Source: a virus
Taxonomy: Duplodnaviria > Heunggongvirae > Uroviricota > Caudoviricetes
Strand: one strand, 5' to 3'
Virus record (IMG/VR): IMGVR_UViG_3300037418_002559
Span: 1-15,998 of that record
DNA length: 15,998 nucleotides
Under the pieces are notes generated by a model, which worked only from the letters and a program-made list of their open reading frames with translations, did not search any database and had not been told where the DNA came from. Shown here piece after piece: positions 12,772 through 13,846 of the stretch (within the stretch, counting starts at the first letter, position 1; each line of letters begins with the position of its first letter). A program made the translations under genes and the position numbers.

Positions 12772-12816
12772 AAATAAAGAAGACGCCGCCAAGTGTGAAG
12801 GGCACTCAGCGGCGTC
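12772..12816 (-). terminator. Strong Rho-independent terminator ending the RNA locus, just upstream of terS
   Basis: On the minus strand: GACGCCGC-TGAGTG / CCCTTCA loop / CACTTG-GCGGCGTC (14 bp including two G-U pairs), then TTCTTTATTT. Confidence 0.8.
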
Positions 12817-13015
12817 AGGTTGTGACTGTTCGCGTCAAGGCGGTGCCATGGTCAGCCTCAGCGCACTGTGCGGCGCGGTAAGGACGCCCGTCGTCACTCA
12901 CGAACTGCGCTTTGTGCGGCCAACCCACTGGTTGAATTGAACTGATCGCGCACAAAGAATAAAAGTTGCCGGCCTCTTCTGTTGCCAGGACTCATCCGGC
13001 TTGCCCCGACGGTTG

Positions 13016-13099
13016 TTAGGCCGCCAGCTGCATCGGAGCAACGGTGCGAGCACGGAATGCGAGCACGTTGTTCTTCCGCGTACTGTCACGTTGGGTGGC
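13016..13099 (-). other. tmRNA tag reading frame (A)ATQRDSTRKNNVLAFRARTVAPMQLAA*
   Basis: Resume context CACAACU-GCC (A at -4), 27 sense codons, C-terminal LAA degron. The exact resume codon is inferred. Confidence 0.75.
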
Positions 13100-13186
13100 A
13101 GTTGTGGTTCAGTTCTCGTTACGGTGAGCACCAGTTCCGGCAAAGTCCATGGACTTTCAAACACCCGTCGAAACCATGACAGGCCC

Positions 13187-13332
13187 ACAAGAGAGTGCTT
13201 CAATACTTCTCAGCTTCAAGGGCTTTACCATTGCACGTGACTCGCTTCGAGGCCGTGCCTCTAGCAGCAGGTTGCGATCCTACCACCCTCATCACTAGCT
13301 TACGTACTTATACCGCTTTTTGAAGCACTCTC
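13187..13332 (-). other. tmRNA intervening segment (146 nt) closed by a perfect 13-bp inverted repeat
   Basis: GAGAGTGCTTCAA directly after CCA (13332-13320) pairs with TTGAAGCACTCTC (13203-13191) 4 nt before the GGG 5' end. Confidence 0.85.
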
Positions 13333-13593
13333 TGGTGGACCCGATGGGAGTCGAACCCATGTCCGAATCATTCTCCAATCCACTTCATACCTTGCGTAAC
13401 TACGGGGCATCCGTACAGGCTTGCCTCCACCACTCCGTCTACATCGGACGGAGACAATCATGTCAGGACCGGTAAGCTGGTTGATCAATCCAGCCTCTAA
13501 TGCGCGAGCCGCCCAGTCCTTTGCTGCGGTCGTAATGCGCGTTCGGTGGCAGCCCATTTATTGCTACTATATGGCCTTTCGGCACCGAACTAA

Positions 13594-13704
13594 TGTGCAA
13601 GCGCTGATGGGATTCGAACCCATGCAATCCGTTGCCTCTTTACGAGGTGGTCATCCCCAGCAGCGATGCTGGCCGTTCAGCCACTCCGGCACAACGCTTG
13701 CACA
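13594..13704 (-). ncRNA. tRNA-Ser-like RNA / pseudo-tRNA lacking a 7-nt anticodon loop
   Basis: AGCGTTG-TG-CCG GAGTGGCTGAA CGG-C-CAGCA TCGC TGCTG-(~33-nt variable region)-ATGGG TTCGAAT CCCAT-CAGCGCT. The D-arm is Ser-type, the acceptor helix extends to 13 bp, and no CCA is encoded. Confidence 0.7.
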
Positions 13705-13713
13705 ACTCAAACT

Positions 13714-13790
13714 TGGTCGGCGATGAAGGATTCGAACCTCCGACATCCTGCTCCCAAAGCAGGCGCGCTACCAGACTGCGCCAATCGCCG
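13714..13790 (-). tRNA. tRNA-Pro (anticodon UGG)
   Basis: 77-nt canonical cloverleaf: CGGCGAT-TG-GCGC AGTCTGGTA GCGC-G-CCTGC TTTGGGA GCAGG-ATGTC-GGAGG TTCGAAT CCTTC-ATCGCCG-A-CCA. Confidence 0.97.
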
Positions 13791-13840: not shown

Positions 13841-13846
13841 ATTATA
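13841..13846 (-). promoter_or_regulatory. Candidate -10 box (TATAAT) upstream of the RNA locus
   Basis: Perfect TATAAT ~50 nt upstream of tRNA-Pro. No convincing -35 element. Confidence 0.35.

Follow-up and report, generated by a model that had tools for sequence, protein, structure and literature searches.

What an RNA with the body of a serine tRNA and no anticodon to read with could do for a phage is the question raised by the start of the soil-phage record IMGVR_UViG_3300037418_002559. The record is 100,317 bases long, and probably circular since its final 127 bases repeat close to its beginning; its first 15,998 nucleotides were analysed here (the window). The feature in question lies on the minus strand at 13704-13594, between an ordinary tRNA-Pro gene and that of a permuted tmRNA. 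An earlier note, made from the bare letters of this DNA, had described a serine-type D arm and T arm, an anticodon arm closed down to a 4-nt loop, a 13-bp terminal helix and a missing CCA, and all of these elements were found again on this strand.

The setting is a stretch of ~1,050 bases that holds RNA genes only, on the minus strand, upstream of the genes for the small terminase, an HNH protein and the large terminase. It begins with a TATAAT (13841-13846), read from the sequence as the probable -10 box of an RNA operon; a consensus promoter scan passed over this box, there being no -35 match. There follow a canonical tRNA-Pro(UGG) with encoded CCA (13714-13790), the feature, which starts 9 nt further on, small hairpin modules, a permuted two-piece tmRNA (12925-13447; RF04321, 68.7 bits) and a 14-bp intrinsic-terminator-like hairpin with a T run (12782-12816), which ends the operon before the small terminase gene. 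Between the feature and the tmRNA lie a closed multi-hairpin element (13530-13590) and a perfect hairpin (13426-13470), both on the minus strand; a relative, L011, has a multi-branched element at the equivalent place, its sequence unrelated to that of the window. The octamer GCRCATTA occurs three times within ~100 bases (13598-13591, 13540-13533 and 13505-13498, minus strand) and eight times genome-wide; its first copy runs into the trailer side of the 13-bp helix, and the repeats could possibly be a processing or protein-binding mark. The tmRNA carries an unusual 27-aa tag (ATQR...NNVLAF...AA) in three related phages (window 12925-13447, minus strand; L011:7706-8148; L015:4732-5100). Permuted tmRNAs have been described for Alphaproteobacteria, Betaproteobacteria and Cyanobacteria (PMC11915505), and none scored above the model cut-off in the 31 Acidobacteriota genomes searched. 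Genes for TROVE (PF05731), SmpB and tyrosine integrase were not found in the phage genome; as there is no gene of the tyrosine integrase family, an attP remnant was rejected as an unsupported reading of the feature.

The gene, counted with its leader/trailer helix, spans 13594-13704 and contains a 7/5 core at 13698-13599. Its terminal helix (13704-13692 paired with 13606-13594) has 13 bp, 12 Watson-Crick and one G-U. The 5' strand (13692-13704) consists of a 6-nt leader (13704-13699) and acceptor positions 1-7 (13698-13692), and the 3' strand (13594-13606) of the acceptor (13606-13600), U73 and a 6-nt trailer, with no CCA. U8, G9 and the D arm (13673-13691) come next, the D arm proper (13689-13673) having a 3-bp stem and an 11-nt loop, and are followed by a closed hairpin that replaces the anticodon arm (13657-13672), with a TCGC loop of 4 nt on a stem of 5 bp, or 6 bp if C26 is counted. 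When the acceptor, D and T stems are held fixed, five pairs of this hairpin have computed probabilities >0.95 and the loop-closing pair 0.75. The variable region (13624-13656, about 33 nt in comparison with ~18-22 in canonical tRNA-Ser) ends in C48 and contains a single stable short hairpin, CCTC/GAGG (13647-13635), with weak hairpins on its flanks; this short hairpin is separated from the anticodon-position stem by 9 nt and from C48 by 10 nt, a placement that differs from that of a canonical arm. The T arm (13607-13623) is canonical, with 5 bp and a 7-nt loop, and the elbow bases U8, A14, G15-C48, G18, G19, U54, U55, C56 and A58 are all intact. It had been claimed that every stem is intact; this has to be limited to four stems, those of the acceptor, the D arm, the T arm and the anticodon position, because the lower part of the variable region forms no stable long stem. 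Rfam recognises the feature as tRNA (RF00005, 34.1 bits) with the 4-nt loop, and ARAGORN does not call it as a tRNA. The folding z-score of the whole molecule is only -2.4 and weakens to -0.1 without the helix extension.

Over 12800-13769 the window is identical at every base to a Logan contig from the source run (depth 24.6), and the feature is thus not an assembly error, even if the run may be the source sample itself and thus does not provide independent confirmation. A junction resembling 13624-13672 at 80% in one contig was set aside as it is probably another organism's tRNA.

The serine ancestry shows in U8-G25, the 19 nt of which are the same as in canonical tRNA-Ser(GCU) and (CGA) genes of Acidobacteriota genomes (L343, L344 and L347). 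The serine-type D arm, the T arm and G15-C48 are present and C11-G24 is kept; the 5-bp anticodon stem with a 7-nt loop that starts one base after the D stem in tRNA-Ser is missing. A shifted register does exist, in which a 4-bp stem with a G-G mismatch at 31-39 would carry a 7-nt loop of the form YU-GCU-R, 3 bases too far from the D stem. Arms like it arise in 0.4% of shuffles, or in 0.1% if four Watson-Crick pairs are needed, both figures being post hoc. This register is ~6 kcal/mol less stable and has a computed probability of 0.0004, so it is not a working fold, and the claim that the RNA has no usable anticodon stands. The GCT at 13661-13659, now paired inside the hairpin, may be a relic of the old anticodon.

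The acceptor end has departed further. All 11 canonical tRNA-Ser genes compared have G1-C72, G2-C71, A3-U70, G73 and CCA (11/11); the feature has A1-U72, G2-C71, C3-G70 and U73, and among these serine marks keeps only G2-C71. Most bacterial tRNA-Ser conserve both G1-C72 and G2-C71 (PMC9976931). With these marks lost, the feature is probably not charged. As E. coli SerRS reads shape before sequence and serine identity resides mainly in the variable arm rather than in the anticodon (PMC9976931), we consider serylation only unlikely.

Is the feature then a decaying gene? Compared with each of the 11 canonical tRNA-Ser genes, the feature shows two-sided change in 5-7 of the 12 acceptor/T pairs and one-sided change in none, with pairing retained throughout; of the 11-15 substitutions, only 0-2 hit the D arm or T loop. 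When as many substitutions were scattered at random, the 15 frame pairs all survived in 0.013-0.095% of trials; the null supposes that the ancestor was canonical, and the result would be weakened by a divergent functional phage tRNA in that place. The earlier argument for selection over random decay is thus borne out by the compensated acceptor/T pairs and by the <0.1% of random trials that keep the frame, and we regard it as probable that the feature is a selected, non-decoding RNA.

Close homologues were not found. The feature is absent from all 57 loci found by terminase (0/57), and exact-pattern searches of IMG/VR gave no close homologue; a hairpin-type pattern had one match, an unrelated look-alike. 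BLASTN against cultured phages and plasmids returned only short T-arm or chance matches, and a match in the Tunturi_5 phage, confined to the T arm, was rejected. No anticodon-less copy was seen in those searched of 401 Acidobacteriota genomes. A relative with 85% terminase identity has the tRNA-Pro alone and lacks the feature; L011 and L015 share the tmRNA and lack the feature, L011 having other tRNAs and L015 no tRNA detected upstream, and the relatives without the feature include a complete one with the same tmRNA. The RNA island is accessory and variable among relatives. Several other tRNA genes of these phages are unusual in their own right: L011 has a tRNA-Gln with a mismatched acceptor end and an altered T loop (L011:7376-7448), L030 a leucine-like frame in which hairpins totalling ~100 nt stand in for the anticodon arm (L030:1697-1855) and another frame, remodelled inside (L030:1161-1276), L046 an expanded anticodon arm in a gene that its relatives also have and that resembles tRNA-Ile(UAU) (L046:1306-1396), and L054 a tRNA frame with a shortened arm (L054:5526-5600).

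Look-alikes were obtained in another way. A search for the D loop and the T loop at a spacing too long for tRNA-Ser gave 10 viral loci, and one with a looser pattern 23; together with genome scans these yielded at least 16 distinct sequences with a paired frame (L061, L062, L066-70, L073, L169, L254, L270, L315, L320, L321, L324 and L325). It should be noted that their D arm sequence was imposed by the search and that matches without a paired frame were left out. They come from uncultured phages and from prophage-like regions of genomes assigned to Sphingomonadales, Burkholderiales and Pedobacter (metagenome-assembled). All have the same D arm and T arm, a freely varying paired acceptor and no canonical anticodon arm; the feature shares the D arm, C48, the T arm, the paired acceptor and the missing anticodon arm. 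Outside the pattern, U8-C11 is present in 10/10 of the first set and C48 in 17/17. Among 16 look-alikes 99.2% of cells are paired, and 10 of the 15 pairs show two-sided change. Acceptor/T covariation reached 0.85, a value inflated by kinship and by the choice of paired matches, against 0.18 in shuffled alignments (0/500 shuffles) and 0.08-0.24 in slid controls. The acceptor sequences show no fixed identity set, and none of the look-alikes tested was called by ARAGORN or, at the gathering score, by Rfam.

A TAnnnT box lies 3-12 nt upstream of 6 of the 14 stand-alone look-alikes against 0.76 expected, the significance being overstated owing to the whole-locus background; such boxes fit the RNA itself being the product. 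Two look-alikes adjoin HNH and terminase genes, as the window copy does, and no shared neighbouring enzyme was seen among the set. About twelve (L061, L062/L203, L067, L071/L255, L073, L169, L254, L270, L320, L321, L324 and L325) combine a long variable hairpin with a UGA-N8-RRA stretch left unpaired where the anticodon arm would be, both absent from the window copy, the variable stem of which is weaker than in most look-alikes. As its hairpin is unlike the UGA-N8-RRA arm of this largest group, the set may have arisen by convergence. R1, a covariance model built on the look-alikes, gave 63.9 bits for the window RNA and 62-71 bits for canonical tRNA-Ser, and thus did not tell mimics from tRNA-Ser; the middle regions differ. 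The UGA-N8-RRA group, without an Rfam match in those scanned, is a better target for defining a family than the window copy. Serine-like bodies with a proper anticodon arm and oversized variable arms were also encountered (L219:6163-6255, L229:6087-6188, L164:835 and L299:590); their anticodons are not those of serine (GAG, CCA, TAG and TAG, respectively), and they are possible mistranslating or irregular tRNAs.

The 13-bp helix had earlier been taken to permit an 8/5 geometry as in bacterial tRNA-Sec. The Watson-Crick extension beyond 7 bp is 6 in the feature and at most 5 in the controls, none of which (0/206) reaches 6; these were 206 archaeal tRNAs reused from metagenome and genome scan matches and dominated by intron-bearing archaeal tRNA-Leu. 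The look-alikes resemble the controls with extensions of 0-4, and extensions to 8-10 bp with G-U allowed are common by chance in ordinary tRNAs. An 8-bp acceptor giving G73 is possible on paper. Since extensions are common by chance and not shared, and since two look-alikes (L320 and L321) encode NCCA at the 7-bp register, the frame is 7/5 and not 8/5, and the extension is a leader-trailer helix particular to the window copy. The Sec-like geometry is therefore unsupported: the feature has neither a Sec-type D arm nor UCA, and the look-alikes do without the extension.

The reading that we favour, and hold tentatively, is that of a tRNA-Ser-derived, non-decoding mimic of the tRNA elbow that would act as a decoy toward proteins recognising the tRNA body or 3' end. 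Judging from the -10 box and the terminator, the RNA would be transcribed together with tRNA-Pro and tmRNA; the compensated pairs and intact elbow bases suggest that it folds in vivo into an acceptor/T helix joined to a D-loop/T-loop elbow, with a sealed hairpin, as computed, displayed where the anticodon should be. Having no anticodon, it is not readable at the ribosome, and with the serine acceptor marks lost it would probably escape charging. Its likeliest use would then be to occupy, harmlessly, host proteins that during infection bind the body or 3' end of tRNAs or attack them there; this decoy role is the weaker part of the reading and a conjecture. Anticodon nucleases read the anticodon loop, and the earlier proposal of a decoy for these enzymes in particular is weak because the RNA lacks that loop. 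A wider proposal, possible and on balance unlikely, is that the feature and its look-alikes are an undescribed class of phage small RNAs with promoters of their own, acting in trans as inert decoys against host proteins that sense or attack tRNA, the window copy being an intermediate in which GCU was sealed by an inserted complement.

Rather doubtful is a processing signal in the manner of plant mitochondrial t-elements, by which the frame would direct RNase P and 3' trimming to cut the operon into tRNA-Pro, the small modules and a tmRNA precursor. The conserved parts, the elbow and the 12-bp helix, are those that processing enzymes read, the feature does lie inside a polycistronic RNA operon, the slot before the tmRNA is filled in L011 by a CCA-less tRNA-Thr(CGU) with U73 and an 11-bp terminal helix (L011:7466-7545), and t-elements set a precedent (PMC1920247). 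However, no tRNA was detected ahead of the same tmRNA in L015, the tRNA-Pro 9 nt away already supplies cut sites, and many look-alikes are solitary genes with a -10-like box in front. The 6-bp paired extension is moreover expected to hinder RNase P at +1, which counts against this reading. A guide specific for the tmRNA, as suggested earlier, is not supported, as two relatives have the same tmRNA and lack the feature.

A relic is unlikely: a divergent phage tRNA-Ser(GCU), once functional and recently inactivated, would be still uneroded, its perfect helices having arisen by template switching at near-palindromes. This would explain the hidden YU-GCU-R register, the weak lower variable stem, the absence of the feature from both the 85%-terminase relative and the complete relative with the same tmRNA, and the degeneration of the relatives' neighbouring tRNAs. 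It would, however, require a 3-nt insertion, ~10 extra variable nucleotides, new acceptor pairs and the loss of G73 and CCA, all compensated and with the elbow spared, and the same losses are met again in look-alikes from unrelated phages.

Less probable still is a private carrier, charged by host SerRS and donating serine to a non-ribosomal transferase, a use the earlier note had proposed. The reliance of SerRS mainly on the variable arm and shape (PMC9976931), the retention of G2-C71 and C11-G24 and the G73 of the 8-bp reading would suit it, but G1-C72, A3-U70, G73 and CCA are all missing, the variable hairpin is out of register by its distances from the anticodon-position stem and C48, no acceptor identity is conserved in the look-alikes, and the genome has no gene of the FemAB, Acetyltransf_6, class II synthetase (tRNA-synt_2b) or CCA-enzyme families. 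That the feature decodes as tRNA-Ser(GCU) after a conformational switch unmasks the anticodon is highly improbable: the alternative register is there in the sequence, but its instability, the three extra nucleotides after the D stem, the G-G mismatch and the lost acceptor identity all speak against it.

Whatever the function, annotation tools discard phage tRNA-shaped RNAs as pseudogenes, and here the sequence evidence points to a serine-type tRNA shape selected for shape alone and recurring in prophage-like regions and uncultured phages. As decoys, these RNAs would give phages a counter-defence made of RNA against immunity that targets tRNA; should they prove to be processing signals or relics, the lesson is mainly one for annotation.

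Neither Rfam nor the literature searched, which was covered in part, holds a family or description for this RNA design. It was compared with known systems. With bacterial tRNA-Ser (CCG/CGG D stem, GCU and CGA) the feature shares the D arm, T arm, G15-C48 and long variable region, and differs in lacking a 7-nt anticodon loop in the stable fold, the acceptor identity, G73 and CCA. Bacterial tRNA-Sec (8/5) is approached by the 8-bp acceptor reading with G73 and the 5-bp T stem, whereas the 6-bp D stem with short loop, UCA and CCA are absent and the extension is unconserved in look-alikes; the proposed comparison with SelC* and tRNA-Sec likewise found neither a UCA or GCA anticodon nor a Sec-type D arm, and the best match in the Rfam clan is plain tRNA. 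The allo-tRNAs and irregular tRNAs of Mukai et al. (PMC5389517), some of which are probably unused in translation, have in common a long variable arm, a serine-like body and a soil and phage context; they are set apart by an 8/4 or 9/3 branch, a long D stem closed by a tetraloop, and the possession of an anticodon, whereas the T stem of the feature is 5 bp long, its D arm is of the serine type and an anticodon loop is missing. YrlA Y RNAs are non-decoding, keep the D/T elbow and the Levitt pair and occur in phages, as does the feature (PMC4201824), but they are circularly permuted, with the T arm before the D arm, and adjoin a Ro60 gene; the feature has the normal order, no TROVE gene and no Rfam match to YrlA.

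The small RNAs C and D of phage T4 presumably have a tRNA-like 3' half. For decades they have had no known role. Encoded by rnaC and rnaD, they too belong to a phage tRNA region (PMC3014915); they have been seen experimentally, whereas the feature is known from sequence and has no match in cultured phages. Plant mitochondrial t-elements are likewise tRNA-like frames within longer transcripts (PMC1920247), although they abut the ends of organellar mRNAs, and the frame of the feature is far better conserved and many of its look-alikes stand alone. It is to T4 RNAs C and D and to the t-elements that the feature is closest in kind.
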